Positions 231 to 59,730 are shown, numbered from the stretch's first letter. The stretch: 64,000 nucleotides of DNA from Ignavibacteriota bacterium (GCA_002698995.1 PAAX01000001.1:1422-65421); one strand, 5' to 3'. Numbers and translations: made by a program. The notes: generated from the sequence alone by a model not told the origin.

Positions 231-2495
231 ATGAAAAATTCATCAGAACAAGATGCACGTATTCGAATTGATGATCAGCTTAAAAAAGCTGGTTGGGATA
301 TAACTAATATTAGAGCGGATGTTCCTCTTAGATTAGATTCACACATTAATGAGCCTACTGTTGAGTATAATGTCAATAGTAAACTTGGTAGAGTAGATTA
401 TGTACTTTATGCTGATAATGGTAGACCATTAGCAGTAATCGAAGCAAAAAGGTCTGCACTTCAACCTTATAGTGCAAAACAGCAAGCATTACCTTATGCT
501 AAAAATATTGGGGCGCCTTTCATATTTTTAACAAATGGTGAGTTGATATATTTTTGGGATTATCAGAATGATGATGCAAGAACTGTTAATTCATTTTATT
601 CCCAGAGAGACCTTCAAAGACTCCTTCATTTGAGGGAAAGTAAATTACCTCTTGCTACTGTTGAGATACCTAATACATATATAAGAAACGGTGAATTAAG
701 AACTGTGCGTGAATACCAGCAAGATGCAATGAAGGCAATGGATCATGCATTTGAATTAGGTAAGAAAAGATTTTTAATAGAACTGCCCACAGGTACAGGG
801 AAAACTGATTTAATTAGTTTGTACCTCAAAAGACTAATAGAAGCTAATAGAGCTGAAAAAATTCTATTTCTTGTGGATAGAGAACAATTAGCAAAGCAAG
901 CATTGGAAGCATTAAATGATATAATGAGTAATCAATATGGAAGCTATTGGTTAAAACCTGGAACTATTAGGGAAGAAAAACAAATAACGGTCTGCTTGCT
1001 GCAAACAATGATATCGAGATATGATGAATTCAGTAGCGGTTATTTTGATGTTGTTATAGCTGATGAATGTCATCGTTCAATTTATGGTTCTTGGCAAACT
1101 GCTTTAACACATTTCGATGCTTTTCATATTGGGCTTACCGCAACTCCCGCAATGTATATTGAGAGAAATACATTTCAATTTTATCACTGTAAGAATGAAT
1201 CACCAGATTTTACTTTGCCTATTAAAACGGCTTTTAAAAAAGAATTTCTAGTTCCATATAAATTTGCTGAAAGAATTACTGTTTTAATGTCCGAAGGTGC
1301 TGATAAAGAAGACGAGCATTATGATCCTGCTCAGTTTGAGAAAAAATGGACAAATGAGAAGTCCAATAGATTAATGATGGAGGAGTTTGACAGATTAGCT
1401 CATGAAAATTACAAAGATTTGGCGTCTGGATTAGATGAAGGCCCTGGTAAAACCATTGTATTTGCAATAACTAAGAATCACGCTGCAAGGTTAGCTCAAT
1501 ATCTTAATGAATTGCACCCTGATACAAAGGGTAAATATGCTGAGGTAATTACCAGTGATATTTCAAATGCGGATGAGTTAATTAGACAATTTAAACGAGA
1601 GTCTTATCCAAAAGTTGCAGTGAGTGTAGGTATGCTGGATACTGGATTTGATTGTCGAGAAGTAATAAATCTTGTAATGTGCAGAAGAGTGCGTTCACCA
1701 ATTCTTTATCAACAGATGAGAGGCAGAGGAACAAGAACTTGTCCGAGGATTGATAAGAAAAAATTCATGATCTATGACTTTTTCGAGAATCATAAATATT
1801 TTAATGATAGTGATACCGATATTTTTTCAGGAGTAGGTGGAGGCTCTTATAAAGTATCCAAACCTCAGAAGCCTAAGACGCCAAGAGAACTCATTGAACT
1901 AGGTCTAGAAGATGAATGGCTTTATAGTGTTAATTATGTTGAAGTTGGTCCACAAGGAGAACGAATAGATAAAAAACAATACATTACTAATTGGGAGAAA
2001 ACAATCAGTGATTCTGAAGATGATCCAATTATTAGCAAAATAAAAATGCAGGCTAAGGCGGATGATTCCGAAAAAGATAAGTATGCTCTCTCTAATAATG
2101 AAGAAAATCTATTAACCTCTAGACTTAATAATCCAGACTATTATTTTAATGAGAACAATTTAAGACAAGCATATCGTGAACCAAGTGGAAATATAATTGA
2201 TTTTATCAAATATGCATTAGGTTTATCGAAACAAAAGTCTAAGAACGAAATTATTACTGAAAATTTTAATGCTTGGTTAGTAACAAAATCATTAACGCCT
2301 GAGCAAGCACAGTATTTAGCAATTTTGAAAAACAGAGGAATAGTAAATGGTAAGGTTGAAATAGATGATCTATTCAAACCTCCACTTTCAATACTAAATG
2401 CTGCTGGATTAGGAATTGAACTATTTGGTGAAGATGGCTTGAAAACGGTAATTAATGATATGAATGCTATTTTATTTAATGTCAACGCAGGATAA
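231..2495 (+). CDS. hsdR: Type I restriction enzyme R subunit (HsdR)
   Basis: N-terminal PD-(D/E)xK core (RVDYVLY...LAVIEAKR). SF2 helicase motif I ELPTGTGKT, motif II IADECHRS and motif VI QQMRGRGTR. C-terminal EcoEI-R-C-like tail. A 3-nt gap separates it from hsdM. Confidence 0.9.
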   Translation: MKNSSEQDARIRIDDQLKKAGWDITNIRADVPLRLDSHINEPTVEYNVNSKLGRVDYVLYADNGRPLAVIEAKRSALQPYSAKQQALPYAKNIGAPFIFLTNGELIYFWDYQNDDARTVNSFYSQRDLQRLLHLRESKLPLATVEIPNTYIRNGELRTVREYQQDAMKAMDHAFELGKKRFLIELPTGTGKTDLISLYLKRLIEANRAEKILFLVDREQLAKQALEALNDIMSNQYGSYWLKPGTIREEKQITVCLLQTMISRYDEFSSGYFDVVIADECHRSIYGSWQTALTHFDAFHIGLTATPAMYIERNTFQFYHCKNESPDFTLPIKTAFKKEFLVPYKFAERITVLMSEGADKEDEHYDPAQFEKKWTNEKSNRLMMEEFDRLAHENYKDLASGLDEGPGKTIVFAITKNHAARLAQYLNELHPDTKGKYAEVITSDISNADELIRQFKRESYPKVAVSVGMLDTGFDCREVINLVMCRRVRSPILYQQMRGRGTRTCPRIDKKKFMIYDFFENHKYFNDSDTDIFSGVGGGSYKVSKPQKPKTPRELIELGLEDEWLYSVNYVEVGPQGERIDKKQYITNWEKTISDSEDDPIISKIKMQAKADDSEKDKYALSNNEENLLTSRLNNPDYYFNENNLRQAYREPSGNIIDFIKYALGLSKQKSKNEIITENFNAWLVTKSLTPEQAQYLAILKNRGIVNGKVEIDDLFKPPLSILNAAGLGIELFGEDGLKTVINDMNAILFNVNAG

Positions 2496-2498
2496 TCA

Positions 2499-4238
2499 AT
2501 GAACCAAGATTTAAGAAGAAAATTAGACAGAATTACAAATATTCTATTTGCAGGTGGAGTAAATAATCCCATCACATATATTGAACAAATATCATATTTC
2601 ATTTACCTTAAACTTTTAGATGAGAGAGAAAATGAAATAGCCTTGAAGGGAAGGTTAGGTGGCAAAAATATTACTTCACTTTACCCTGGACAAGCTGAAA
2701 AATATAAATGGTCTAGTTGGAGACATTTTTCTGGTGAAAAGCTATTAAAAGTTGTTCGTGATGATGTCTTTCCATACATGGCAAATGTAAATAGTGATAA
2801 TACTCATATAGCAATTTACTTTAGAGATGCTGTACTTCAAGTTCATGATCCTAATATTCTTAAGCAAGTAATTGATGAAATAGATACAATTAATTTTTCT
2901 AGACTTGGCTCGGATGTTAAGGGAGATATTTATGAATATATGTTGACTTATCTTAATACAATGGAAGGTTCATTGTTGGGGCAATTCAGAACACCAAGAC
3001 AGATAAGAAAAATGATGGTTGAAATGGTTGATCCAGATATTGGTGATACAATTTATGATCCAGCTTGTGGAACTGGTGGGTTTCTTATAGATGCCTTGGA
3101 ACATATTATGGCAAAGTATTCAGAATCAAAAGAAGAAGTTCCAATTTATGGTGAAGAATGGTTAATAAACAAATACCTCGATAGATTATCAGATGATGAG
3201 CAGCTTCAATTTGAGGATGAGGAGTTTTCTTTTGACAATAATCTGAAGTTAAGAACAAAGTTATTAAATGAATTAAAAGAAGAGAACAAAAACCTACAAA
3301 CTTACCTAAAAGGAAATGGCGATCTTATCCCAAATTGGGAAATTCTTGAGCAATCGATTTATGGAGTTGATGTAAGCAGACAAATAATGAGAATTGCTAC
3401 GATGAATATGGTTCTTCATGGAATAATGAAAGCAAATATTAAGAGAGGTAATACACTAAGTGAAATGGGGGGTTTGACTGATGATGATCTCTATAGAAAA
3501 TACAAAGTGATATTATCTAATCCTCCTTTTGCTGGAGTATTACCAAAAGAATCTATAAGAGAAAACTTACCTACCAATACAAAAAAGAGTGAATTGTTAT
3601 TCCTTGCTGTAATGATGGATCAATTAGCTGAAGGCGGGACTTGTGCGGTTATTGTTCCCGAGGGTCTATTATTTGGTTCTACAAATGCTCATTTGGAGCT
3701 TAGAAAGAAACTTGTTGAACAGTTTAATCTTTTGGCTGTAGTTAGCTTGCCTGCAGGTGTTTTTAAGCCTTACGCAGGTGTTAAGACTTCAATTCTGGTA
3801 TTTAAAAGACCTTACAAAGATTCTTTATTTTCCGATAAGGTAGCTACAGAAAAAGTCTGGTTTTATGAGATTAAAAATGATGGATATGATCCCGATAAAA
3901 TAACTGGTGGAGGAAGACCAGAGACAGCGGAAGCAAACGATATACCTAGATTTATGAGAGAGTGGAAAAATTTCAAGAATAGTAATTTCAAAGAATTTCC
4001 TGGAATTGAGGGGGAAACAAGACTACCACATAATTCTAGGGAACCAAAATGTTGGTGGACTAATATTGGTGAAATATTAGATAAAAATTATAATATATCC
4101 GCCTCAAATTATAAGCCATCTATTGAAACATTAAATAGTGAAATTGAACCATCAGAAATAATCAACAACATACTTATTATTGAAAAAAATATTGTTAACA
4201 AATTAGAATCTTTAAGTAACAATTTGCGAAATGACTAA
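2499..4238 (+). CDS. hsdM: Type I R-M N6-adenine DNA methyltransferase subunit (HsdM)
   Basis: Motif I DPACGTGGF and motif IV LSNPPFAG. The N-terminal region is HsdM_N-like. Overlaps hsdS by 8 nt. Confidence 0.9.
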   Translation: MNQDLRRKLDRITNILFAGGVNNPITYIEQISYFIYLKLLDERENEIALKGRLGGKNITSLYPGQAEKYKWSSWRHFSGEKLLKVVRDDVFPYMANVNSDNTHIAIYFRDAVLQVHDPNILKQVIDEIDTINFSRLGSDVKGDIYEYMLTYLNTMEGSLLGQFRTPRQIRKMMVEMVDPDIGDTIYDPACGTGGFLIDALEHIMAKYSESKEEVPIYGEEWLINKYLDRLSDDEQLQFEDEEFSFDNNLKLRTKLLNELKEENKNLQTYLKGNGDLIPNWEILEQSIYGVDVSRQIMRIATMNMVLHGIMKANIKRGNTLSEMGGLTDDDLYRKYKVILSNPPFAGVLPKESIRENLPTNTKKSELLFLAVMMDQLAEGGTCAVIVPEGLLFGSTNAHLELRKKLVEQFNLLAVVSLPAGVFKPYAGVKTSILVFKRPYKDSLFSDKVATEKVWFYEIKNDGYDPDKITGGGRPETAEANDIPRFMREWKNFKNSNFKEFPGIEGETRLPHNSREPKCWWTNIGEILDKNYNISASNYKPSIETLNSEIEPSEIINNILIIEKNIVNKLESLSNNLRND

Positions 4239-5328
4239 AGTTAATATTAAATTTGAACTTGCTATAAGTGATGAGACCGGTGGAAATAAGAAGGTCAAAA
4301 AAAATGAATACTTAGTTGACGGAAGATATCCAATTATTGATCAAGGGAAAGAAATTATATCTGGTTATACAAATGATGAAAACAATCTTTTCAAATTTAA
4401 TCAACCCTTAATTTTGTTTGGAGATCATACACGAATATTCAAATACATTGATTTTCCTTTTTGTCTTGGAGCTGATGGTGTAAAAGTATTACTTCCACAT
4501 AAAAGTTTTGATGCAAAGTATTTGTATTATTTTTTTAATACTCTCAACATTGATAGCAAAGGTTATAGTCGACATTTTAAGTTCATAAAGAAATTTGAAA
4601 TACCCTTAATTGCCAAATCAGAACAAAAAAGAATAGTTGAAATATTAGATCAAGCTGATGAAATAAGACAATTACGTAAACAAGCTGATGATAAATCAAA
4701 TGAAATAATCTCTTCACTTTTTTATAAAATGTTTGGTGATTTAGAAAAAGATACACTACTGCATGAAGTAATGGAACTTAAATATGGGAAGGGATTACCT
4801 AAATCAAAAAGAAGAAAGGGCAATATTCCTGTTTATGGTTCAAATGGAGTTGTGGACTACCATGATAAACATTTTATGAAAAACGATACAATAATTGTAG
4901 GAAGAAAAGGCAGTGCAGGGGAAGTTCAACTTGTCCGAGGAGCAAGTTGGCCTATTGATACAACATTTTATACTGAAATAATAAAAAATGATGTAGAATT
5001 AGAATATTTATTCTTCGCATTGAAGCAACTTGATTTGAGAAAGTTTGCAATTATTACAGGGGTTCCTGGAATAAATAGGGACACTATACTTAATCAAAAA
5101 ATTGCTATACCTGATCCAAAGTTACAAAGTAGATTTAGTCGGATTTATAATCAAATATCAGATTTAAATGAAAAACAACAATGCTCAAGTAACAGCATTG
5201 ATTCTCTTTATACTAATCTTTTATCTAAAGCTTTTGATGGTAGTCTTACAGAAAGATGGCGTGAAGGTAGAATGAAAGAATTGTTACAAGAGATGGAAGA
5301 GCAAAAGAAATATTTAGGAATTAATTAA
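4231..5328 (+). CDS. hsdS: Type I R-M specificity subunit (HsdS)
   Basis: Two target-recognition halves are separated by the conserved helical spacer EQKRIVEILDQADEIRQLRKQADDKSNEI. A second spacer lies at the C-terminus (LQSRFSRIYNQISDL...LLSKAF). Position follows hsdM. Confidence 0.85.
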   Translation: MTKVNIKFELAISDETGGNKKVKKNEYLVDGRYPIIDQGKEIISGYTNDENNLFKFNQPLILFGDHTRIFKYIDFPFCLGADGVKVLLPHKSFDAKYLYYFFNTLNIDSKGYSRHFKFIKKFEIPLIAKSEQKRIVEILDQADEIRQLRKQADDKSNEIISSLFYKMFGDLEKDTLLHEVMELKYGKGLPKSKRRKGNIPVYGSNGVVDYHDKHFMKNDTIIVGRKGSAGEVQLVRGASWPIDTTFYTEIIKNDVELEYLFFALKQLDLRKFAIITGVPGINRDTILNQKIAIPDPKLQSRFSRIYNQISDLNEKQQCSSNSIDSLYTNLLSKAFDGSLTERWREGRMKELLQEMEEQKKYLGIN

Positions 5329-5338
5329 GGCAATCAAA

Positions 5339-7777
5339 ATGAAATTGCATGAAGCAATTCAGCAAGTACTTTTAGAAGAAAATAGAGAGCTAAACTCTTC
5401 TCAAATTGCTCACAAAGTTAATCAGAAGAAACTCTATACAAGAGGTGATGGCCAACCTGTTCCTTCAAGTCAGATAAGTGCTAGAGTGCGGAAATATCCC
5501 GCACTATTTAATTATAATGGTTCTATTATTGGATTAAAACAATGGCTCGTCAAAAAAGAACATAGTGTAAATAAAATGAAATTGCATGAAGCTATTCAAC
5601 ATATATTATTAGACAAAAATAGAGAATTAAGTGCATTCCAAATTTCTAAGATAGTTAATGAAAAAGGACTTTATCAGAGAAAGGATGGGCAACAAGTTCC
5701 ATCAAAACAGGTTCTTGCAAGAGTAAGGAATTATCCACTTTTATTTTATAGCGATAATAATAGGATCGGTCTTAATGCATGGAGATTAAAATTTGCTAAC
5801 AAAGAAAGTTTACTATATAAAGAAATACTTTATATACTAGAACAAAATAGTGAAGCAATGGATCCAAAAGTCATTGCGGATACAATAGTTAAGAGAGAAA
5901 TATATTTTAAGGATGACAAAACCAGAGTAAATGCTGAAGATGTATTATTTGAAATAAGGAAAAATGAAAATACATTTCAAATTATTAACGGCTTGGTTCA
6001 ACTTTCAAACTGGGACTTTGATGAGGATTATATCAAGGAGGCGGTTTATGATATTATGGTTAAAGAGGAAATAAGTACTAAGGATGAATTAGATTTTAGT
6101 AATTCACTGAAGAACTTTAGAGTCGGCAACTTCAAACCATATAATCATTCTCAATCATTAAAATTAAAGCCAATAACTTTGCTCTTTGGACCTAATAGTT
6201 CTGGGAAATCAAGTTTAATACATTCTATTTTATATTTACAAAATGCATTTGATCAAAAAGATTTAGATCCTCATTATATGAAAATTAGCGGTGACTCAGT
6301 TGATTTGGGCGGTTTTAGGCAACTTATACACAGGAATGATATACAAAGACGATTAGAATATGAAATTGAAATTGACAAATCTCAGCTTAACACAGAATTG
6401 CAAAAAACTTTAATGGAAATTAATTCAATTAAGCTAAAGATTGAAATAGGCCAACCACTTAAAGAAAAATTCAAAAGACAAATTATCAAAGCTCATGAAG
6501 ATGGACAATTCTTTTATGAAAACTCACCAACAGGGGAATTTGAATCTGTTGGTAAACCTCGAGTTCAAAAGTATGATATAGTGCTCGATGAAGAAACAAT
6601 GTTAAGCTTTGGTTATAGAGGAAATGATTTGTTTAAAATTGATCAATTCAATTATTCTAATAAAATAATATCGAAAATTATTCAAGCAATAATTTTAAGC
6701 AATACTACGACTAGTGAAATAGATGATGATGATTATAATAAAGTGCAGGATTCTATAGATAATATATTGAGCGAGTTTTACGTTTTAACGACTGATATAA
6801 TACCCAGCAGAATTAGAACTATCTCTAAAACGACAATGGATAAGATCATTGCCATTAATAAAGAAAATAGAGAATTGGAATTTGCAAATACTATTAGAAT
6901 GTTTTTACCAGTGGCTTTAAATGAAATTTTAGAGGGTCTTTATGATGTTGCGAAATTGTCTTTATCCACTTTGGTTTATCTAGGACCTATTCGATCTTAT
7001 CCACCTCGTCATCTATCATTTGAAGCAATTAATAATTCTAATTACCAATCTGGTGGTGCTCTTGCTTGGGATAAATTAAGAGACAATGAAGAAGTCAGAA
7101 AAAAGATTAATGCTTGGTTAAGAAATACTGGCAAATTAAAATCAAGGTACCAAATTGAAGTAAGAAAATATGTTGATCCAAAAAGCAATGAGTTTAATTC
7201 TGTTTTAGAAGATATAGAATCAGAACAGAATTTTGAATTAGAAAAATTAGGAAATTGGAATGGTCTTCCAATTGACAAGATTATAGATAGTATGAAGAGT
7301 GACGCAGTTGAGGGAATTAAGGAACTTGTACTTGTAGATTCTGATGGAACCGTAGTAAGTCATAGAGATGTTGGCTTTGGAATAAGTCAGGTCATTCCAG
7401 TTCTAGTATACACTTTAGCCAATAAAAATAAAATAGTTATGATAGAACAACCGGAAATTCACTTGCATCCAGCGCTTCAGGCAGAGCTTGGTGATGTAAT
7501 GATTGAAAGTGCTTTAGGAGAAAACAAAAATACACTTATTCTTGAAAATCATAGTGAGCACATGATTCTACGAATACTAAGGAGAATTAGGGAAACATCA
7601 AGCGGAGAACTACCAGAGGGTAAAATTCCAATTAAACCAGAAGACGTATCAGTTATCTACATTCAAAACACTAGGGAAGGTGCAGTATTAAACAATATAC
7701 CTATTACTGAAGACGGTGATTTTTCGAAGCGATGGCCAGATGGGTTTTTCCCCGAAAGAGCAGAGGAACTAAACTAA
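5339..7777 (+). CDS. ABC-type (AAA_15/AAA_21-like) ATPase with three N-terminal HARE-HTH-like winged-helix modules and a DUF3696-like C-terminus
   Basis: wHTH modules span aa 1-69, 80-148 and ~156-225, each ending GL..W or QLSNW. Walker A LLFGPNSSGKSS. Walker B/D-loop IVMIEQPEIHLHPALQ. C-terminal HSEHMILRILRRIRE...WPDGFFPE. It starts 10 nt after the hsdS stop. Confidence 0.8.
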   Translation: MKLHEAIQQVLLEENRELNSSQIAHKVNQKKLYTRGDGQPVPSSQISARVRKYPALFNYNGSIIGLKQWLVKKEHSVNKMKLHEAIQHILLDKNRELSAFQISKIVNEKGLYQRKDGQQVPSKQVLARVRNYPLLFYSDNNRIGLNAWRLKFANKESLLYKEILYILEQNSEAMDPKVIADTIVKREIYFKDDKTRVNAEDVLFEIRKNENTFQIINGLVQLSNWDFDEDYIKEAVYDIMVKEEISTKDELDFSNSLKNFRVGNFKPYNHSQSLKLKPITLLFGPNSSGKSSLIHSILYLQNAFDQKDLDPHYMKISGDSVDLGGFRQLIHRNDIQRRLEYEIEIDKSQLNTELQKTLMEINSIKLKIEIGQPLKEKFKRQIIKAHEDGQFFYENSPTGEFESVGKPRVQKYDIVLDEETMLSFGYRGNDLFKIDQFNYSNKIISKIIQAIILSNTTTSEIDDDDYNKVQDSIDNILSEFYVLTTDIIPSRIRTISKTTMDKIIAINKENRELEFANTIRMFLPVALNEILEGLYDVAKLSLSTLVYLGPIRSYPPRHLSFEAINNSNYQSGGALAWDKLRDNEEVRKKINAWLRNTGKLKSRYQIEVRKYVDPKSNEFNSVLEDIESEQNFELEKLGNWNGLPIDKIIDSMKSDAVEGIKELVLVDSDGTVVSHRDVGFGISQVIPVLVYTLANKNKIVMIEQPEIHLHPALQAELGDVMIESALGENKNTLILENHSEHMILRILRRIRETSSGELPEGKIPIKPEDVSVIYIQNTREGAVLNNIPITEDGDFSKRWPDGFFPERAEELN

Positions 7778-7778
7778 A

Positions 7779-8702
7779 ATGATAAAAGAATATGCTCTTG
7801 ATCCGCAAGTAATGGCTAGTTGGGATAACTTTAGATTCTTTAGTTCGCAATTTGGCTGTCAATACGGACGGATGATATCAAAATTTCCGAGTGGATGGAA
7901 AAGAATAGTATTTGAATTATGTCAAAATAATCATGGTATAAGTGAAATTCAGTTAAAGAAAATTGAAGTAAATCTTTATCAACGAGAATTTGACCGTAAA
8001 TTTGTAAAAAATTCTAGGGATTATGTTAATAGTTTAGGATGGATTGAGAATGCATTACGTTCTAACCAGAATAAACCTTTTCATGCAATTATAAGCTCTG
8101 AAGTGAGAGAGAGTGTACAATTGGTAGACGATATAGACGATTCTAATGAAAAATGGAAAGTGGATATAGGTTTACCCGTACCAAGAACTGCTAATCATTT
8201 TGTAAAAGTTTTCACCCCATTTTTTCTCTTAGCAAATGATATAATTTTTGTTGAACCACATTTTGATCCACATACATCTAAATGGTATCGAGCTTTTCGA
8301 ATCTACTTCAGGAAGTTATTTGAAAATGGAAAACGATATCGAAAAATAGAATTACACACTTCGGCTAAAATGACTCCAAAAATATTTGCTGATGAATTTA
8401 TTATCAAGTTTGAGCAGTTTTTCACCGAAAATTACGGAATTCATGTTTATTTATGGGAACGAATCGATAATAACGAAAATTTTCATCCTCGATATTTGCT
8501 GACAGAAGTTGGAGGTCTGAGAATTGATTATGGTTTTGATGACATAAGTGAAGATGAAACTACTGATATTTCTTTACTGAGTGATATAGTCTATGAAAAA
8601 AGAAAAAGTAACATTGAAGAATCCTCTACTGTATTTAATTTAGTTGCAAAGATTCTGTTTTCGAAAAAAAATACTAGGTTGACATACTCTATACTTCAGT
8701 AA
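7779..8702 (+). CDS. Hypothetical protein, translationally coupled partner of the ABC ATPase
   Basis: The ATG lies 1 nt after the ATPase TAA stop (7775-7777). The ORF is 307 aa with no motif I can assign. Coding potential is judged from length, coupling and composition. Confidence 0.75.
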   Translation: MIKEYALDPQVMASWDNFRFFSSQFGCQYGRMISKFPSGWKRIVFELCQNNHGISEIQLKKIEVNLYQREFDRKFVKNSRDYVNSLGWIENALRSNQNKPFHAIISSEVRESVQLVDDIDDSNEKWKVDIGLPVPRTANHFVKVFTPFFLLANDIIFVEPHFDPHTSKWYRAFRIYFRKLFENGKRYRKIELHTSAKMTPKIFADEFIIKFEQFFTENYGIHVYLWERIDNNENFHPRYLLTEVGGLRIDYGFDDISEDETTDISLLSDIVYEKRKSNIEESSTVFNLVAKILFSKKNTRLTYSILQ

Positions 8703-8722
8703 ATTGCCACAACATTGCTAAA
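8700..8722 (+). promoter_or_regulatory. 23-nt conserved motif TAAATTGCCACAACATTGCTAAA (copy 2 of 2)
   Basis: See 167-189. It sits in the 75-nt gap upstream of the HARE-HTH/GIY-YIG-like gene. Confidence 0.35.
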
Positions 8723-8777
8723 ACTTTATATCCTCTATTTGTATTTAATTTTGTATTAGAAATTAAAAAGAGGATAT

Positions 8778-9614
8778 ATGACACTCCACGAAGAAATAAA
8801 GAACATACTTTTAGAAAATGGTAAGCCACTAACCACTTCTCAAATTGCTGACTTTGTAAATGATCGAAAAATATACTTAAAAAGAGATAATTCAAAAGTA
8901 TCCTCATTTCAGATTCATGGACGAACTAAAAATTATTCCAATATATTCTTAAGGAATAAAACTATAGTTGGACTTAGAAATCGTGACGAAGCTTTGATGA
9001 ATTCAGATGAGTTTAATTCCGAAGAACCAAACTATCAAGCAAATAATCCAATTATTAATTTCATGTTTAATCAGGGCCATACCGAATTTAATGATCTTAT
9101 AAATGTAGATAAAATAAAGTTTCTGATTGATAATGGGTTTATAAATTTGGGCAAAATAAAACATTTATTGATAGAAGGGCTTCCGCAAATTTCAGAACTT
9201 CAATCAAGTGGGCTTTATGCTATTACAGCTTATGAAAATTATAAACCGAGCTATTATAACCATCAAGAAGCAATTGAAAATGGGAATGTAGTATCGCCAT
9301 GGGAAGCTTCGAGATTAATAAATAAATGGGTAGATGGGGCAGAGATCCTCTATTATGGACTTGCTGGAGCGAAATCAAGTCGACCATTAAAAGTAAGGTT
9401 GAATGATTTACTTAAACATGCATTTGGTGATATAACTGAAAGAGGTCCACATAAAGGGGGAGAAATAATATGGCAATTAAAGAATTGGCAAGATTTTGAA
9501 TTATGGGCACTCCCAACTGGAGCACCACCAGAACCCAGAGATAAAGAATATTTGCTGCTCAAGAAATTTTACGAGACTACAGGGAAACTGCCATTTGCTA
9601 ATAGACAATTTTAA
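8778..9614 (+). CDS. HARE-HTH-like winged helix fused to a GIY-YIG-like nuclease domain
   Basis: N-terminus MTLHEEIKNILLENGKPLTTSQIADFV...IVGLRN parallels the modules in the 5339 ORF. The C-terminus has SGLYAIT ... ILYYGLAG ... RLNDLL ... PHKGG ... DKEYLLL ... LPFANRQ, matching the GIY / YIG / R / H / E / N order of GIY-YIG nucleases with a long insert between GIY and YIG. Confidence 0.6.
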   Translation: MTLHEEIKNILLENGKPLTTSQIADFVNDRKIYLKRDNSKVSSFQIHGRTKNYSNIFLRNKTIVGLRNRDEALMNSDEFNSEEPNYQANNPIINFMFNQGHTEFNDLINVDKIKFLIDNGFINLGKIKHLLIEGLPQISELQSSGLYAITAYENYKPSYYNHQEAIENGNVVSPWEASRLINKWVDGAEILYYGLAGAKSSRPLKVRLNDLLKHAFGDITERGPHKGGEIIWQLKNWQDFELWALPTGAPPEPRDKEYLLLKKFYETTGKLPFANRQF

Positions 9615-9629
9615 TAAAGAGGTAATAAA

Positions 9630-10994
9630 ATGAGAAGTAATTACACTGAAGTAATCGAATGTCCTAAGTGTGGAGAACAAATTAAATTGACTGAGGCCTT
9701 GATAGGTCATATTGAATCAGATCTTAAAAAAACCTTATCAGAAGAAAATAATCAAAAAATTGAACAAGCAAAGAAAGAAGCCGCTAAAAAGGCATTAGAA
9801 GAACGTGAAAATGAATTTGTAGATTTGAGAAATCAACTTGCAGAAAAGCAAACAAAAATCGATAAGCTTAATTCCAAAGAACTCGAATTGAATAAGAAAG
9901 CAAGAGAGTTAGAAGAAAAAGAAAATTCCATTACCAATGAATTGGAAAAACGCCTTAACAGTGAGAGGACTAAATTAATAGCACAAGGACGTGAACAAGC
10001 TACAAAGAATGTAACGCTTGAAGTTCAAGACCTAAAAGAGCAACTTAATGAGGCAACTAAAAGGGTCGAAAATTTGACGAAAAAAGAACTTGATCTTCGT
10101 AAGGAAAAGCGAGAGTTAGAAAATGCTAGGAAGGAATTGGAATTGGAAAAACAGCGAGAAATAGATTCAATGCGAGAAGAGATTTATAAACAAGCAAAGA
10201 ATGAGTCTGATGTAGATTACAAATTAAAAATTAGGGAGCGAGATGAGCAGTTAAAGCAGATGAATAAAAAGATTGAAGAACTTCAAAGAAAAGCTGAACA
10301 AGGATCTCAGCAATTGCAGGGTGAAGCACAAGAATTAGAACTAGAAGATTTTTTGAAATATAATTTCCCTTTAGATGATATAGAACCCATTGCCAAAGGT
10401 CAAAAAGGTGCTGATATAATACAAAAAGTTAAAAATGAATTCGGGGCTGAATGTGGTATAATATTATGGGAATCAAAAAGAACAAAGGATTTTGGAAATA
10501 AATGGATAGCTAAATTAAAAGAAGACCAGAGAGAAACCAAAGCAAATATTGCAGTAATTATTACGGAAGTACTTCCAGAAAATATAAATAATTTTGGAGT
10601 GATTGATGGAGTATGGGTAGGGAGTTTTCAATCAACTCTTGGTATTGCCACAGCGCTGCGTGAAAATCTTATCCAAATATTTAACCTACGTCAATCAGAA
10701 GTTGGAAAGAATCAAAAGATGGACGCTCTTTATGGATATTTAACGAGTCATGAATTTGCACAAAGAATTGAATCAATTATTGAAGCATTTGATGCTTTGG
10801 AGGGACAAATTAAAACCGAAAGAAAAGCATTTGAGAAACAATGGAATGAAAGGGCTAAACTGCTCTCTCAAGTAATGAAAAATACTGTTGGTCTTCATGG
10901 CGATCTAAAAGGGATAATAGGCAAAACCTTACCTGAAATAGAGGGATTATCCTTAGAGGACAAGTCATCTTTCTCTGAGCTAAATTTAATTTAA
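9630..10994 (+). CDS. DUF2130-family protein (zinc-ribbon N-terminus, long coiled coil, restriction-endonuclease-like C-terminal domain)
   Basis: CPKCGEQ at the N-terminus, then about 230 aa of E/K-rich coiled coil. C-terminus reads GADIIQKV...GIILWESKRTKDFGNKWIAKLKEDQ, a D...ExK-type core typical of DUF2130. An SD-like AGAGG lies upstream. Confidence 0.7.
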   Translation: MRSNYTEVIECPKCGEQIKLTEALIGHIESDLKKTLSEENNQKIEQAKKEAAKKALEERENEFVDLRNQLAEKQTKIDKLNSKELELNKKARELEEKENSITNELEKRLNSERTKLIAQGREQATKNVTLEVQDLKEQLNEATKRVENLTKKELDLRKEKRELENARKELELEKQREIDSMREEIYKQAKNESDVDYKLKIRERDEQLKQMNKKIEELQRKAEQGSQQLQGEAQELELEDFLKYNFPLDDIEPIAKGQKGADIIQKVKNEFGAECGIILWESKRTKDFGNKWIAKLKEDQRETKANIAVIITEVLPENINNFGVIDGVWVGSFQSTLGIATALRENLIQIFNLRQSEVGKNQKMDALYGYLTSHEFAQRIESIIEAFDALEGQIKTERKAFEKQWNERAKLLSQVMKNTVGLHGDLKGIIGKTLPEIEGLSLEDKSSFSELNLI

Positions 10995-11120: not shown

Positions 11121-11143
11121 GGCAGCAAACTTAATTTGCTGCC
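11121..11143 (+). other. Perfect 9-bp stem hairpin GGCAGCAAA-cttaa-TTTGCTGCC
   Basis: Read directly from the sequence. Only a weak T-tract follows, so a terminator role is uncertain. Confidence 0.3.
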
Positions 11144-31535: not shown

Positions 31536-33770
31536 ATGGAAATGTTAGAGCCGGAAGTTAATTTAGATTTAGCAAAAGAACATGGATTTACTGAAGAAGA
31601 GTATAACTGGGTTTGTGAAAGATTAGGGAGAATCCCAACTTTTACCGAATTAGGAATATACAGTGTAATGTGGAGTGAACATTGCAGTTATAAAAATTCA
31701 ATAGCCCTTCTTAAAACTCTTCCGAGAGAGGGTGGAAAATTGTTAGTCGGTGCCGGTGAAGAAAACGCCGGATTAGTTGATATTGGTGATGGACTTGCAG
31801 TAGCATTTAAAATTGAAAGTCATAATCATCCTTCTGCAGTTGAACCTTATCAAGGGGCTGCAACAGGAGTAGGCGGAATATTAAGAGATATTTTTACGAT
31901 GGGTGCTCGTCCAATTGCTGCATTAAATTCACTCCGTTTTGGTAATCTTGATGATGCAAGAACAAGATATTTATTTGAAGGAGTAGTTAAAGGAATTGCT
32001 GATTATGGAAATTGTTTTGGTGTTCCTACCGTTGGCGGTGAAGTTTATTTTGATGAATCATATAAAGGAAATCCTTTAGTTAATGCAATGGCAATTGGTA
32101 TTGTTAAAGTTGATCAAACTGCATCTGCAACAGCAAAAGGTAATGGTAACCCGGTTTTAATTGTCGGTTCTTCTACCGGAAGAGACGGAATTCACGGTGC
32201 TACCTTTGCTTCTGAAGAGATAAGTGAAAAATCTGAAGCTAAAAGACCATCGGTTCAAGTTGGTGATCCTTTTACTGAAAAATTACTGCTTGAAGCTACT
32301 CTTGAAATAATAAAGAATGACTGGATAATAGGTATTCAAGATATGGGAGCTGCCGGAATTTCCTGCTCTACTTCAGAAATGAGTGCAAAGGGAAAATCCG
32401 GTATGGATATAGATTTAGATAAAGTACCTTTGCGCGAAGAAGGAATGTCTGCTTACGAAATTATGCTTTCTGAAAGTCAAGAAAGAATGCTGGTGGTAGC
32501 AAAAAAAGGATACGAAGATAAAGTAATTGAAACATTTGAAAAATGGGATTTAAATTGTGCTGTTATTGGTACTGTAAATGATTCGGGTATACTTAAAATT
32601 CATCAAAATGGTGTAATGAAAGCAGAGTTAAAAGCGTGGGATTTAGTCCTCGGCGGCGGAGCTCCGGTTTATTATAGAGAGACTAAAAAACCGGATTATA
32701 TTGAAAAGAAACACTCATTCGATTTTAATTCTTTATCTGAATCAAAAAATTTAACTGAAGTATTTGAAAAAGTTGTTTCTTCTCCAAACATTGCATCAAA
32801 AAAATGGGTTTATAATCAATATGATTCAATGGTTAGAACAAACACAATTGTAGGTCCCGGTTCTGATGCTGCAGTGATTTATATTAAAGATACTAATAAA
32901 GCTTTAGCTGCAAAAACCGATTGCAACGGAAGATATGTTTATTTAAATCCAAAAGAGGGGACAAAAATTGCGGTTGCTGAATCTGCTAGAAACGTAGTTT
33001 GTTCCGGTGGTACTCCTTTAGCAATTACTAACTGCTTGAATTTTGGAAATCCATATAAACCAGAGAACTATTGGATGTTTAAGCAGGCAATAGAAGGAAT
33101 GGGAGAAGCATGCAGATATTTTAACACTCCTGTTACTGGCGGAAATGTAAGCTTTTACAATGAAAGTCCAGAAACTTCTGTATATCCAACTCCTACTATT
33201 GGTATGGTTGGATTGATTGAATCATTAGATCATATTACAACGGCAGATTTTAAGGAGGAAGGGGATTTAATATATCTTCTTGGAATTGATAATGAAGAAT
33301 TAGGCGGAAGTGAATATCTCAAAGTTATTTATAATTTGGTTGAAGGAAATTCACCTGCATTAGATTTACAAAAAGAAAAAGATTTACAAACAACATTATT
33401 AAGTTTAATAAAGAAGGGATTGATAAGATCGGCGCATGATATTTCGGAAGGGGGATTAATAACATCATTAGCAGAAAGCTGTATAATTAATTACGAGAAA
33501 CCTTTAGGTGCCGAAGTTCTTATTCCAATAAATAATCGTATTGATTTTTCACTTTTTTCAGAATCTCAATCGAGAGTAATAATTTCAATTTCACCAAAAG
33601 TTAAAGATGCTTTTGAAAAGGAAATTTCTAAATCATTTACACCTTATAAATTTATTGGAAAAGTTGGAGGGGAAAAACTTATTGTAAATCAAGAAATATC
33701 AATAAGTATAAATAGACTAAAAGAACTTTACTATCAATCAATTCCGTCAAGGATGAATGTCACAGTTTAA
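31536..33770 (+). CDS. purL: Phosphoribosylformylglycinamidine synthase subunit PurL
   Basis: [33 protein letters not shown], duplicated AIR-synthase-like domains. Confidence 0.95.
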
Positions 33771-34686
33771 GTTTCTGAAAATAGTTGGTAAATATTTTAC
33801 AACAGCTAGATACAGAAGAGTAATTAATTTTTTTGATCATTACTTTAGAAAGTTGTTTAAAAGAATTGATGAAAACCATATGTATCTTGCTGCCGGGGGA
33901 ATAGCATATTCTATACTTCTAAGTGCAATTCCTTTTGTACTGCTTGTTTTTTCTATCCTTGGAAATATTATAAATCCCGAAACAATAGAAATTCAGTTAA
34001 AAACTCTTATTGATACTGTAATTCCATATCCTCAATATTCAGATTATACCATGCAGTTTATTATGTCTAGAATTACCGAAGTTATTCAATACAAAACAAT
34101 TACTGCTTATCTTGGTGCGTTTGGTTTACTCTTTACCTCAACTTGGCTTTTCAGCAGTATGAGAACTACCTTAAATGGAATTTTTAAAGTAACAGAAAAC
34201 AAAAATGCATTTATTGCTCTGCTTAGAGATTTTGGAATGGTAGTTCTTCTAATAATTCTTCTGGCATTTTCAACCTTCATTTTACCGGTTCTTAATGTAT
34301 TAACAAATGCTGCTGAGTATTCAAATCTTTTTAAGGCTTTTCAACTAAACGAATTAATCGATATTTTATTTTCGATTGGTTCTATTGTTATACTTTATAT
34401 TCTTTTTTTTCTATTTTATTACTTAATACCATACGAAAATTTAGGAAAAAGAGTGCCGGCTGTAGCTGCATTTTGGGCAACTTTATTATGGGAATTAGCT
34501 AAAACCGGATTTGGTTATTACGTTTCAAATTTTTTAAGCAGCGGCAAATTATACGGTGCATTTATATTGATTGTAGTAATTATCTTTTGGATTTTTTATT
34601 CATCAATTTTATTTGTTTTGGGAGCTGAAATAGGTCAGCTCTATAGAGAAAGACAACAGGAAAAAAAAGCTAATAATGATACGTGA
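33757..34686 (+). CDS. YihY/BrkB family membrane protein
   Basis: [16 protein letters not shown] motif and six TM helices. Confidence 0.8.
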
Positions 34687-55887: not shown

Positions 55888-58800
55888 GTGATTCTTAAAA
55901 AACTTACACCAAAAGCTGCATTAAACAAAGCTTATCAAAAAATAAAACCTCTCCGAAACGAATTTGAAAATTTCAAAACAGAACTCAACATTTTTATTAA
56001 TTCAATTAATGTTGATGAATCGGAAGAATACAATAAAAAGCTTATTGCTAATTTTTTTGAGAAAACATTTTATTCGGAAAATAATGTTAATACTAAGGGG
56101 AGAACCGATTTAGCTATATATCTTGGTAAATCTGCTAAAGATAAAGTTGGGGTTATTACCGAAGTTAAACATCCTAATAATTCAAGCGAAATGGTTAAAC
56201 AGAATAACCTAAATACAAAAGCGATGCATGAGGTTATCCGTTATTATCTTAATGAAAGAATTGATGAAAAAAATGACGAATTAAAATCTATTGTAATTAC
56301 CAACCTTTATGAATGGTTTATTTTTGATGCTCAAACTTTTGAGAGAATTTTCTTTAAGGATACTGAGCTTAAAAAAGATTACTTAAGCTGGAAAAACAAT
56401 AAAAAAGTAAGCAGCAATACAGATCATTTTTATAATGAAATTGCAAAACCTTTTCTGGAAAAATTAAAGACTGAAATTGAGTTTGTGCATTTTAATCTGA
56501 GTGATTATGATTTTAAGGAGGAGAAGAAACTTATACCTCTCTTTAAAATTTTTTCTAAACCGCATTTAATTAAAGAAACATTTGCCAACGACAGCAACAC
56601 ATTAAACAAACCTTTTTATCAAGAACTGCTTCATATAATTGGATTGGAAGAAGTAAAAGAGGGGAGTAAAAAGATTATCCGCCGTAAAGATGAAACGCAG
56701 CGTTATTCCGGTTCCCTTCTCGAAAATACAATCACAATTCTTAAATCAAAAGATTCCGATCTTTACTTTAACGATAAGGAAAAATACGGCACAACAAGGG
56801 ATGAACAGCTTTTTAATATTGCTCTTGAACTAAACATAACATGGATTAACAGAATTCTATTTCTAAAACTGCTTGAGGCTCAATTAGTAAATTATAATAA
56901 AGGGGATAAATCACATAAGTTCTTAGATTCTTCCCTCATTAAAGATTTTGATATTCTGAGAGAATTATTTCATGAAGTATTGGCAGTTAAAGAAGATGAA
57001 AGAAGTAAGGATATTCTTCCTCAGTTTAATAATGTCCCTTATCTAAACAGTTCACTTTTTGATATAAGCACGCTTGAACGAAAAACAATTGATATAAGCG
57101 GATTAAAAGACCGTTACAAAATTCCCTATTACAGCGGAACCGTTCTAAAAGGGAGTGATTCAAAAAGATTAAATGGTGAGATTTCCACTCTTAAATATCT
57201 TCTCGATTTTTTGGATGCTTACGATTTTTCAACCGAAAGTACCGGTGATGATATTCAAGAAGAAAATAAATCACTTATTAATGCTTCTGTTTTAGGAAGA
57301 ATATTCGAAAAAATTAATGGTTACAAAGAAGGCTCTATTTTTACTCCCGGATTTATTACAATGTATATGAGCCGCGAAACTATACGCCGTGCGGTTGTTC
57401 AAAAGTTTAATGATCATTTAAAAACCTCTTACAAAGACTTTAACGATCTTAAAAAAGAAATTGATATTGATGCCGAAGGGAGAAAAAAAGCAAACCATAT
57501 AATAAACTCATTAAAAATATGCGATCCGGCTGTGGGCTCAGGGCATTTTCTGGTTTCTGCTCTTAATGAAATTATTGCGGTAAAATCCGAATTGAAAGTT
57601 TTAAGCTACCGCGATGGAAGCAGAATACAGCAGTATAAGGTTGAGATTGAGAACGATGAGCTTATTGTTACCAACGTTGAAACCGATGAAATTTTTGATT
57701 ATCACCTTAGCGATAAAGGGAATATTATAGACGAACTTCAAAAAGTGCAGGAAGCTCTTTTTCATGAAAAGGAAACCATAATTGAAAACTGCTTATTTGG
57801 TGTTGATATAAATCCTAACTCGGTTAATATATGCAGACTAAGGCTTTGGATTGAGCTTCTTAAAAATGCTTACTATGACCTCACCCCCAGCCCCTCTCCT
57901 AAATTAGGAGAGGGGAGGGTGAGGTCCTTACAGACTTTGCCCAATATTGATATTAATATTAAACAGGGTAATTCTTTAATAAGCAGATTTGCTCTTGATG
58001 TTGATCTTAAAAAGGCTCTTAAAACTTTTAGATATACTATTGATGATTATAAAAATTTTGTTGCGGGTTATCGTAATGCTAAAACTAAAGAGGAGAAGAG
58101 AAACTTTGCCAGGTTTATTGAGGATATTAAAAAGAATTTTAGAACAGAAATTAATGCTAATGATCCCAGACGTAAAAAGCTTAATGATCTAAGCTACGAG
58201 CTCCATACTAAATTTGAATCCGATAGACTTATTGAAGTTGAACTTTCCGAAGCAGATAAAAAGAAAACGGCTAAGGAAAAAGAAAAACTTGTTAAACAAA
58301 TTGATAAGTTATCGGATGAACTTAAATCCGAAGAGACAGGAGAAATTTATAGAAATGCTTTTGAATGGCGTTTCGAATTTCCGGAAGTGCTTGACGATGA
58401 TGGGAATTTTATCGGCTTCGATGTTGTGATTGGAAATCCGCCGTATATAAGATTTCAAGAAATCAATGATATAAATAAAATCCTATCAAACTATTTTCGT
58501 GAGCAATATATGGTTGCAAATAAAGGAAATTATGATATTTATGTTATTTTTATTGAAAAAAGCATGCAACTAATTCGATCAAATGGGTTTGTAGATTTTA
58601 TAGTTCCTAATAAATTCATGAATGCAAATTATGGTGAAAGTTTAAGAAATATGATTACTTCAAGTCAATCACTTTCAAGAATTGTAGATTTTGGAGAGCT
58701 TCAAGTATTTGATGAAGCTACAATTTACACATGTTTACTAAGACTCAGTAAGAATTGTAGAACATTTAATTATCTGAGAATCGCAAGTATTAAAGATTTA

Positions 58801-59730
58801 AGGCATAGTTTACCTCTTAAATATGAAAAAAGAGAGACAATAAAACTTATTAATAAAGAGTGGAATATTAATAAATTAGAATTAGATGCCCTTTTTATTA
58901 AAATGCAAAATGGTACCATTCCACTTAAAGAGATTACTAAAATTTTTGTTGGAATACAGACAAGTGCTGATCCAGTTTATATTGTAAGGTCAAATAAAGG
59001 AAAGTTCTATTCGAAGTCTCTGAATAATTATTGTCAACTAAATAATGAAATTTTAAGACCAGTATTAAAGGGTAGTGATATTAAAAGATTCTTTTTTAAT
59101 GAAACTACTCAATTTGTCATTATGCCTTATATAGTTGAAAATAATGAAGTAAGCTTAATGCAAGAAAAAGATTTTAATAAAAATTATACAGCCACATTCG
59201 AATATTTAGGACAGAATAAGAGTAAACTTCTGAAAAGAGCAGAAGTTGATATCAATTGTTGGTGGCATTATCCATTTCCTAAAAATATTAAAGAGATGTT
59301 TCAACCAAAAATTATTACTGGAGTTTTAGCAAATAAAGCATCTTTTAATTTTGATTCTGATGGAAAATACACTTTTGTTGGTGGCGGTAATGCTGGTGGT
59401 TATGGGTTAATTTTAATAGATACTTCTTTTAGTTACAAATATCTTGTAGGTTTATTGAATTCTCAGCTTATAGATTTATTCATAAAATCTGGTTCAACAA
59501 AGTTTAGAGGCGGGTATTATTCATATGCAAAAAGGTTTATTGAAAACACTCCGATTAAAAAACCAACCCAAAAACAAGAATCCCAAATCACCGGAATAGT
59601 AGAAAAAATAATAGAGAAGAAGAAAGAGAATCCGGAAGCAGATACAAAGGCAGAAGAGAAGGAAATAGATAGATTGGTTTATGAGTTGTATGGGTTAACG
59701 GAGGAGGAGATAAAGATTGTGGAAGGGTGA
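55888..59730 (+). CDS. Type IIG (Eco57I/MmeI-like) bifunctional restriction endonuclease / N6-adenine methyltransferase
   Basis: N-terminal PD-ExK (GRTDLAIY...VITEVKHP). Motif I CDPAVGSGHFLV and motif IV VIGNPPYI. TaqI-C-like specificity region (IFVGIQTSADPVY, LVGLLNSQLIDLF). Typical tail LVYELYGLTEEEIKIVEG. GTG start taken from the ORF track, so the start is uncertain. Confidence 0.88.
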   Translation: MILKKLTPKAALNKAYQKIKPLRNEFENFKTELNIFINSINVDESEEYNKKLIANFFEKTFYSENNVNTKGRTDLAIYLGKSAKDKVGVITEVKHPNNSSEMVKQNNLNTKAMHEVIRYYLNERIDEKNDELKSIVITNLYEWFIFDAQTFERIFFKDTELKKDYLSWKNNKKVSSNTDHFYNEIAKPFLEKLKTEIEFVHFNLSDYDFKEEKKLIPLFKIFSKPHLIKETFANDSNTLNKPFYQELLHIIGLEEVKEGSKKIIRRKDETQRYSGSLLENTITILKSKDSDLYFNDKEKYGTTRDEQLFNIALELNITWINRILFLKLLEAQLVNYNKGDKSHKFLDSSLIKDFDILRELFHEVLAVKEDERSKDILPQFNNVPYLNSSLFDISTLERKTIDISGLKDRYKIPYYSGTVLKGSDSKRLNGEISTLKYLLDFLDAYDFSTESTGDDIQEENKSLINASVLGRIFEKINGYKEGSIFTPGFITMYMSRETIRRAVVQKFNDHLKTSYKDFNDLKKEIDIDAEGRKKANHIINSLKICDPAVGSGHFLVSALNEIIAVKSELKVLSYRDGSRIQQYKVEIENDELIVTNVETDEIFDYHLSDKGNIIDELQKVQEALFHEKETIIENCLFGVDINPNSVNICRLRLWIELLKNAYYDLTPSPSPKLGEGRVRSLQTLPNIDINIKQGNSLISRFALDVDLKKALKTFRYTIDDYKNFVAGYRNAKTKEEKRNFARFIEDIKKNFRTEINANDPRRKKLNDLSYELHTKFESDRLIEVELSEADKKKTAKEKEKLVKQIDKLSDELKSEETGEIYRNAFEWRFEFPEVLDDDGNFIGFDVVIGNPPYIRFQEINDINKILSNYFREQYMVANKGNYDIYVIFIEKSMQLIRSNGFVDFIVPNKFMNANYGESLRNMITSSQSLSRIVDFGELQVFDEATIYTCLLRLSKNCRTFNYLRIASIKDLRHSLPLKYEKRETIKLINKEWNINKLELDALFIKMQNGTIPLKEITKIFVGIQTSADPVYIVRSNKGKFYSKSLNNYCQLNNEILRPVLKGSDIKRFFFNETTQFVIMPYIVENNEVSLMQEKDFNKNYTATFEYLGQNKSKLLKRAEVDINCWWHYPFPKNIKEMFQPKIITGVLANKASFNFDSDGKYTFVGGGNAGGYGLILIDTSFSYKYLVGLLNSQLIDLFIKSGSTKFRGGYYSYAKRFIENTPIKKPTQKQESQITGIVEKIIEKKKENPEADTKAEEKEIDRLVYELYGLTEEEIKIVEG
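57877..57926. mobile_element. 50-nt GC-rich palindromic mini-element inserted in frame in the type IIG gene
   Basis: GACCTCACCC-ccag-CCCCTCTCCTAA-a-TTAGGAGAGGGG-a-GGGTGAGGTC. About 62% G+C by my count. It encodes DLTPSPSPKLGEGRVRS. The same termini occur in the intergenic copy at 59729-59868. Confidence 0.75.

Follow-up and report, generated by a model that had tools for sequence, protein, structure and literature searches.

The gene pair and its conservation

Here, we report on two adjacent genes in a stretch of 64,000 nucleotides (nt) of DNA from an Ignavibacteriota bacterium (GCA_002698995.1 PAAX01000001.1:1422-65421), the whole of which is called the window below. The first gene encodes an ABC ATPase of 812 amino acids (aa) and the second a partner protein of 307 aa, a putative effector; they follow the three genes of a type I restriction–modification (R-M) operon, which is the context and host of the module (Table 1). 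The ATPase gene starts 10 nt after the end of hsdS (5328 to 5339), and a single base separates its TAA stop (7775-7777) from the partner's ATG at 7779. An earlier note on this DNA, made from the sequence alone, had described the two open reading frames (ORFs) with these sizes and spacings, and both the ORF list and the sequence agree with it; Pfam and PADLOC confirm hsdR, hsdM and hsdS upstream. It had also taken five genes to be co-transcribed; co-transcription is probable, but the number is likelier to be seven. Because the sole convincing terminator-like hairpin (11121-11143) lies 3' of the DUF2130 gene, the transcription unit probably takes in seven genes, i.e., 231-10994. A scan for sigma-70 promoters was at chance (56 matches versus 58.6 expected), and its matches were not used.

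We collected 83 related loci from many phyla, three through look-ups of partner homologues and 80 through a genome scan. An ATPase homologue is located directly upstream of the partner gene on the same strand in 80 of the 83, the remaining three being truncated contigs, and the intergenic gap is between -4 and +8 nt in 79 of those 80 loci. The distance matrices of ATPase and partner are correlated with r 0.89 (Mantel p <= 0.001); in the hsdM-bearing subset the correlation rises to 0.96, versus 0.82 between ATPase and neighbouring hsdM and 0.72 between partner and hsdM, therefore ATPase and partner evolve as a unit. The partner is an obligate, co-evolving and translationally coupled companion of the ATPase. 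The pair is widespread and usually sits 3' of hsd genes: upstream DNA of 4 kb or more is available for 60 loci, and 43 of these have hsd genes there, in 22 cases ending no more than 100 nt from the ATPase start. The earlier note had proposed a coupled two-gene pair in a defence setting and had suggested gene-neighbourhood conservation as a check on it; adjacency, correlated distances and hsd context all bear this proposal out. Plasmids of Deinococcus, Methylocella and Vibrio carry the pair, on the Vibrio plasmid nested between hsdS and a helicase gene, and so do two IMG/VR contigs; no partner homologue was found in a database of deposited phage genomes. Apart from hsd, the neighbours of the pair are not conserved, with OLD-like and GmrSD-like genes among them.

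Domains and motifs of the two proteins

As judged by profile matches and motifs, the 812-aa protein belongs, at the level of sequence, to the NsnB-type ABC ATPases and carries DUF3696 as its tail. Pfam recognizes AAA_15, AAA_21, HARE-HTH and DUF3696 in it, the last of these at aa 765-806 with 24.5 bits, above the gathering score of 22, which confirms the DUF3696-like tail seen earlier. Among the PADLOC models it matches NsnB of Menshen (1.3e-43), PDC-M55A (4.8e-42) and HEC-03B (1.1e-41; the ATPase model of HEC-03 in PADLOC-DB naming), and more weakly AriA (4e-23), AbiLi (2e-12) and GajA and PtuA (about 1e-7 to 1e-8). All motifs quoted earlier are present in the translation: GPNSSGKSS (aa 284-292), IVMIEQPEIHLHPALQ (aa 699-714) and HSEHMILRILRRIRE...WPDGFFPE (aa 738-806). 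An alignment of 32 family members keeps Walker A as GxNSxGKS, the signature as DVGxGxSQ, with GxG replacing SGG, and the H-loop as ETHSEH; Walker B reads hhIEQPE without the usual D-E dyad, and the tail motif WPxGFFxERxxEL is invariant. The entire family thus carries I-E-Q-P-E at the Walker B position that is normally D-E in ABC ATPases. An E-to-Q Walker B is a hydrolysis-deficient state and is used experimentally for trapping ATP-bound dimers. The Walker B of this family resembles that state, and the switch may be ATP binding rather than turnover; the analogy suggests slow or regulated ATP hydrolysis.

The N-terminal part of the ATPase is built from three tandem winged-helix modules, as had been claimed: Pfam HARE-HTH (PF05066) matches aa 1-254 in three stretches (E 6.6e-10, 39.7 bits versus a cut-off of 25.9), and comparison of the repeats agrees. 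Modules 1 and 2 are 58% identical in protein (BLASTP, E 3e-29) and 66% identical in DNA, therefore the duplication is not recent; module 3 matches module 1 at E 3e-6 and the HARE-HTH domain of the ORF at 8778-9614 at E 3e-8. The view that such a fusion is unusual for this ATPase clade is supported, the region being covered by about 12 among the best 120 of 461 homologue clusters, most of them with two modules and one (P0162) with three. Most ATPase relatives are 520-600 aa long without any N-terminal extension, a few have PF04760 in place of HARE-HTH, and at one locus (L005) a separate 125-aa HARE-HTH gene lies 5' of the ATPase. Because most relatives do without it, the HARE-HTH array is a rare, lineage-specific, sensor-like addition and not the core of the system, and the idea that three DNA-reader modules define it fails for the commonest relatives. 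Binding of N6-methyladenine has been reported for the HARE-HTH domain of ASXL1, and cytosine modifications have been proposed as well. Betaproteobacterial ATPases at five loci (L026, L028, L037, L051 and L081) carry another N-terminal extension of about 135-155 aa with no Pfam match, which may be a different sensor domain exchanged onto the common ATPase scaffold.

No model of Pfam, PADLOC or NCBIfam matches the partner itself, not even at an E-value of 10, consistent with the earlier statement that it carries no TOPRIM, HNH or P-loop signature. Searches with the partner and 40 relatives (41 diverse members) gave no Pfam match and no relevant PADLOC match either, which places the family outside the described family models of both, and RefSeq labels the homologues "hypothetical protein". 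An exhaustive hidden Markov model (HMM) search of 1.84 billion representatives found 2,773 partner-family clusters at E <= 1e-3 and 917 at E <= 1e-30 (clusters counted at 50% identity), nearly all members being about 300 aa long and matched over their full length. A tiny family of 7 clusters, as a word-indexed homology search had given, was rejected on the strength of this count.

The AlphaFold2 model of the partner (pLDDT, i.e., predicted local distance difference test, 83) has two domains. Foldseek assigns the modelled C-domain to the PLD superfamily with a probability of 0.99-1.0 (E about 1e-3), with matches to Streptomyces PLD, the nuclease PLD3 and MIT_C of MITD1 (template-modelling score, TM, 0.53-0.57 to MIT_C), and on this model the C-domain has a PLD/MIT_C-like fold. 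The single-HKD PLD enzymes Nuc and PLD3 are among the fold matches together with MITD1 MIT_C and have, like the partner, one H-x-basic-x4-acidic motif per chain. Across the family H236, R238 and G252 are invariant, D/E159, H193, T242 and G245-G246 near-invariant, and E243 conserved; these residues form H-x-R-x4-E-x-G-G, a variant of the HKD motif, i.e., HxR(x)4E-x-GG in the partner versus HxK(x)4D(x)6GSxN in PLD. This HKD-like motif together with E159 and H193 is a candidate active site. Profile searches against the PDB returned methylthioribose kinase and succinate-semialdehyde dehydrogenase, which we regard as chance matches.

The N-domain, modelled alone (pLDDT 85), shows a small beta-alpha-beta-alpha Rossmann-like topology with E4 as the only conserved acidic residue. 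PIN domains (1o4w, TM 0.44) and the PINA helicase (5yww/5f4h) are among its best superpositions by TM, and a weakly PIN-like fold is suggested by the model. Neither the partner nor its relatives have a Pfam PIN match, and the conserved columns do not contain the canonical D-E-D-D set of acidic residues.

Relation to Menshen and proposed working of the pair

Menshen (Millman et al. 2022; analysed in PMC12065111) consists of NsnA, NsnB and NsnC, and its protection against phages has been demonstrated. The sensor, NsnA, has a DUF262 domain and at times further DNA-binding domains at its N-terminus; the ABC ATPase, NsnB, carries a C-terminal DUF3696 helix, has GxG in place of SGG and lacks the D-E dyad in its Walker B; NsnC joins an inactive-PIN N-domain to a variable effector C-domain, and the DUF3696 tails of NsnB are predicted to clamp the NsnC N-domain, with an NsnB4-NsnC2 complex as the model (PMC12065111). 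All of these NsnB features are present in our ATPase. The gene directly downstream of it likewise encodes a two-domain protein of about 300 aa, with a predicted C-domain that is PLD/MIT_C-like as in NsnC class PB-PLD1, which is described as MIT_C-like with D/E after beta2 and HDR before beta5 (PMC12065111); going by this description, D/E159 and H236-x-R238 of the partner are likened to the PB-PLD1 site. The HARE-HTH array may be compared with the optional N-terminal domains of NsnA.

The pair differs from Menshen in several respects. In Menshen, NsnA (ParB-DUF262 plus ParBDB) is encoded directly upstream of NsnB, whereas here hsdS takes this place; none of the seven operon proteins matches NsnA or DUF262 in Pfam or PADLOC, and NsnA is absent from 79 of the 80 related loci as well. 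The NsnC HMM does not recognize the partner, the DNA-binding addition is on NsnA there and on the ATPase here, and as a rule our pair accompanies a type I R-M operon. When 84 loci were scanned for the DGxQR motif, a DUF262 gene adjacent to the ATPase turned up at one locus only, L036, where a DUF262-only protein (PDC-M55C 2e-19, NsnA 3e-8; GmrSD_N present, no DUF1524 nuclease domain) is encoded 9 nt upstream of the ATPase. This three-gene arrangement indicates that the partner family can occupy the NsnC slot, the two-gene form being the usual one. Because the defining NsnA is absent, we do not file the pair as Menshen proper, and because the Menshen census was seeded on NsnA (PMC12065111), pairs without NsnA fall outside its scope.

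Other systems resemble the pair in part. The two-gene system HEC-03 has been validated; it consists of an ABC ATPase and a PIN protein, both genes being required (Payne et al., bioRxiv 10.1101/2024.01.29.577857); shared with it are the ATPase match, the two-gene order of ATPase and downstream effector, and the embedding in another defence system. However, a VapC-like PIN protein is the effector in HEC-03, whereas the C-domain of the partner is predicted to be PLD-like and its N-domain to resemble, at most, an inactive PIN fold; HEC-03 is found in Hma systems, this pair in type I R-M operons. PDC-M55 is an untested PADLOC candidate, the PDCs being defined by embedding in BREX, DISARM or type I R-M. 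It is linked to our loci through the ATPase match and the DUF262 protein of L036, but the window has no PDC-M55C-like gene and the partner matches no PDC-M55 model. PARIS, Septu, Gabija and AbiL/RloAB share the logic of an OLD-type/AAA_15 ABC ATPase oligomer governing a bound nuclease; they pair the ATPase with a TOPRIM, HNH, helicase or RloB protein, and DUF3696 tails, PLD-like effectors and HARE-HTH modules are absent from all of them. The AriA match is about 20 orders of magnitude weaker than that to NsnB, and the partner matches neither AriB, which is a TOPRIM/DUF4435 protein, nor TOPRIM, nor PtuB (HNH), GajB (UvrD-like helicase) or RloB/AbiLii.

The earlier note had named the assignment of both genes to a described system as the outcome that would speak against its proposal; such an assignment was found for the ATPase and not for the partner. 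With ATPase matches of 1e-41 to 1e-43 to NsnB, PDC-M55A and HEC-03 and a partner whose predicted two-domain build resembles that of NsnC, a wholly new system far from anything known, one of the two options in the note, is not supported. We regard the pair as a variant of a known defence type with an uncharacterised effector. Our preferred reading, to which we give a probability of roughly 0.7, is that it belongs to the HEC-03/PDC-M55 clade as an anti-phage module related to Menshen but lacking NsnA, rides on a type I R-M operon and works as follows. Judging from the NsnB4-NsnC2 model and from the PARIS and Septu complexes that have been solved, the effector would be kept inactive by oligomers of the ATPase, whose DUF3696 tails would clamp the effector's N-terminal adaptor domain. 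A phage cue would then shift the ATP-bound state of the ATPase, by which the effector would be freed or switched on; by the same analogy, its dimerisation would complete an active phosphodiesterase site, and nucleic acid would be cut and the phage or the infected cell stopped. Dimerisation may be needed because there is a single HKD-like motif per effector chain. The three HARE-HTH modules probably tether the ATPase to DNA or read DNA, possibly its modification state, and in this lineage the array would replace the DUF262 sensor NsnA. The effector may act on nucleic acid or lipid, and the system may be triggered by DNA or, as PrrC and PARIS are, by an anti-restriction protein. We also considered, as a speculation that is probably wrong in this form, that the array reads the mark of the co-encoded type I methyltransferase or hypermodified phage DNA, that a "self" mark gates the PLD-like abortive-infection effector without NsnA, and that a related reader module directs a GIY-YIG-like nuclease; if true, several effectors would respond to a single epigenetic signal through one exchangeable reader domain.

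Several points weigh against this Menshen-related reading. The partner and its 40 relatives match no NsnC, HEC-03 or PDC-M55B model, the Foldseek E-values of the C-domain are modest, and the sequence-profile searches of the PDB with the partner matched no PLD. The isolated N-domain has no significant Foldseek match (best E 0.6). MIT_C is known for membrane binding and not as a nuclease, unlike the effector role that the model suggests for the partner. The ligand specificity of HARE-HTH is so far a proposal in the literature. Please note also that the 80-locus scan used patterns taken from close relatives and that about 17 of the loci are from Nitrotoga.

Alternatively, the pair may guard the type I R-M enzyme in the manner of PrrC or PARIS, being latent while the R-M complex is intact and firing when it is disabled or mimicked by Ocr- or Stp-like proteins, with HARE-HTH merely co-localising the ATPase with the DNA-bound enzyme; this differs from the Menshen-related reading in the trigger alone. 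The hsd linkage (43 of 60 loci, close in 22), the nested Vibrio pair, the ATPase distances that follow those of hsdM (r 0.82) and the known ABC-ATPase systems triggered by anti-restriction proteins (discussed in bioRxiv 10.1101/2024.01.29.577857) all favor it. Yet about 28% of the loci with enough flanking DNA, e.g., L001 and L003, have no recognizable hsd gene nearby, therefore the pair can stand alone, and type I R-M operons are host to many unrelated defence genes (bioRxiv 10.1101/2024.01.29.577857), so adjacency may reflect genomic location only. We consider a guard function unlikely.

Two further explanations are far less probable. If recognition of modified or foreign DNA by the triple HARE-HTH were the core of a categorically new system, with a mechanism unrelated to Menshen, PARIS and Septu, then the lack of any Pfam, PADLOC or NCBIfam model for the partner, the absence of NsnA and the rarity of HARE-HTH arrays on these ATPases would be as expected; but the ATPase strongly matches NsnB, HEC-03 and PDC-M55A and shares their motifs, the common form of the pair has no HARE-HTH, the predicted effector architecture parallels that of NsnC, and one locus (L036) has the full three-gene arrangement. 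This explanation is already largely refuted and very improbable. Nor is it easy to regard the pair as a toxin-antitoxin-like addiction or selfish cassette that stabilises an R-M island or plasmid without any anti-phage role, the ATPase acting as antitoxin and the PLD-like protein as toxin. Such a cassette would fit the tight coupling with overlapping stop and start codons, the presence on plasmids and the presumable toxicity of a free effector, but an ABC ATPase of 550-800 aa is atypical as an antitoxin, the closest relatives HEC-03 and Menshen have been shown to be phage-protective, and the pair is mostly chromosomal and near other defence genes; we regard it as having very little chance of being correct.

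If the Menshen-related reading holds, the pair extends the system past the DUF262-seeded census, and an NsnB-NsnC core would be able to function, or at any rate to survive, in the absence of NsnA. As the effector family, which is large and occurs in many phyla and on plasmids, has no model in Pfam, PADLOC or NCBIfam, current defence finders would see a lone ATPase at these loci. The pair would be a compact two-gene model for the control of effectors by DUF3696 ATPases, and its HARE-HTH variants are a natural experiment on sensor-domain swaps between subunits and on the ligands of prokaryotic HARE-HTH.

Operon neighbours and the rest of the window

Table 1 Features of the operon at the left end of the window (positions counted from its first letter)
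Feature	Position	Strand	Basis
hsdR	231-2495	+	Pfam ResIII/EcoEI_R_C/HSDR_N; PADLOC REase_I 1.5e-80
hsdM	2499-4238	+	Pfam N6_Mtase/HsdM_N; PADLOC MTase_I 8e-142
hsdS	4231-5328	+	Pfam Methylase_S; PADLOC Specificity_I 4.5e-72
Type I R-M operon (hsdR, hsdM, hsdS), context of the module	231-5328	+	Pfam, PADLOC
NsnB-like ABC ATPase, 812 aa, ATG start	5339-7777	+	ORF call, Pfam, PADLOC
HARE-HTH module 1, aa 1-78	5339-5572	+	Pfam HARE-HTH
HARE-HTH module 2, aa 79-157	5573-5809	+	BLASTP versus module 1
HARE-HTH module 3, aa 158-240, diverged	5810-6058	+	Third Pfam stretch
ABC ATPase core, aa 257-764	6107-7630	+	Motif conservation across 32 family members
Walker A GPNSSGKS, aa 284-291	6188-6211	+	
GxG signature DVGFGISQ	aa 677-684 of ATPase		
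Walker B MIEQPE	aa 701-706 of ATPase		
H-loop ENHSEH	aa 736-741 of ATPase		
DUF3696 C-terminal tail, aa 765-812	7631-7774	+	Pfam DUF3696; invariant WPxGFFxERxxEL
Partner, putative effector, 307 aa, ATG start	7779-8702	+	ORF call, AlphaFold2, Foldseek
Partner N-domain, aa 1-~110	7779-8108	+	AlphaFold2 model
Partner PLD/MIT_C-like C-domain (predicted), aa ~135-307	8181-8699	+	AlphaFold2, Foldseek
Variant HKD-like motif H236-P-R238-YLLT-E243-V-G245-G246-LRIDY-G252-F-D254	8484-8540	+	Invariant or near-invariant columns, two alignments
HARE-HTH protein, 278 aa	8778-9614	+	Similarity to ATPase module 1
DUF2130 protein with N-terminal coiled coil, final operon gene	9630-10994	+	Pfam DUF2130 1e-64
Terminator-like hairpin, 9-bp stem and T-rich tail, likely operon end	11121-11143	+	

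The gene that follows the pair (8778-9614) encodes the fourth HARE-HTH domain of the operon, which is N-terminal and shares 43% identity with ATPase module 1. The C-domain of the protein has no Pfam match but contains the pattern GIY...YIG...R...E...N (CG-x-YAI, YYGLAG, R207, GPHKGGE, PFANR), and an hhalign comparison with proteins combining HARE-HTH and GIY_YIG_2 spans the GIY and YIG motifs, with the score driven by the HARE-HTH part. The family comprises about 115 clusters, C-domain-only forms of about 180 aa occur, and at L002 a homologue of the 278-aa protein likewise lies 3' of the pair. On these grounds the protein is probably a second effector sharing the reader module, and it may be a GIY-YIG-like nuclease directed by it. 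The DUF2130 protein has a long N-terminal coiled coil, and a DUF2130 gene recurs near the pair at L002 and L027.

Further genes were observed at some of the related loci. Directly 5' of hsdR at L002 (1-2536), a metagenomic contig, are a second DUF3696 ATPase (>587 aa) and a 294-aa protein of unknown kind, i.e., the R-M operon there is bordered on both sides by ATPase-partner pairs. At L018 (1217-6330) hsdM and hsdS flank the gene of a GmrSD/HEC-06-like DUF262 protein, and an OLD-like ATPase is encoded there too; as an NsnA candidate this DUF262 protein was rejected, being within the R-M operon and not adjacent to the ATPase. The DGxQR hits at L032 (4514-6256) and L062 were rejected as DUF262 proteins too, since they are second ABC ATPases, located directly 5' of the pair.

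Neither a compositional island nor a tRNA was found, and beyond about 11 kb the window holds ordinary cellular genes at a flat GC content of about 31%. Two genes at 31536-34686 (+), for proteins of 744 and 309 aa, were considered as a second ATPase-partner pair and rejected; they encode PurL (FGAM synthase) and a membrane protein, and the sizes are coincidental. At 55888-59730 (+) the window has a separate, second R-M system, a type IIG-like enzyme of 1,280 aa with DUF7149, DUF7814, Eco57I methylase and TaqI_C.

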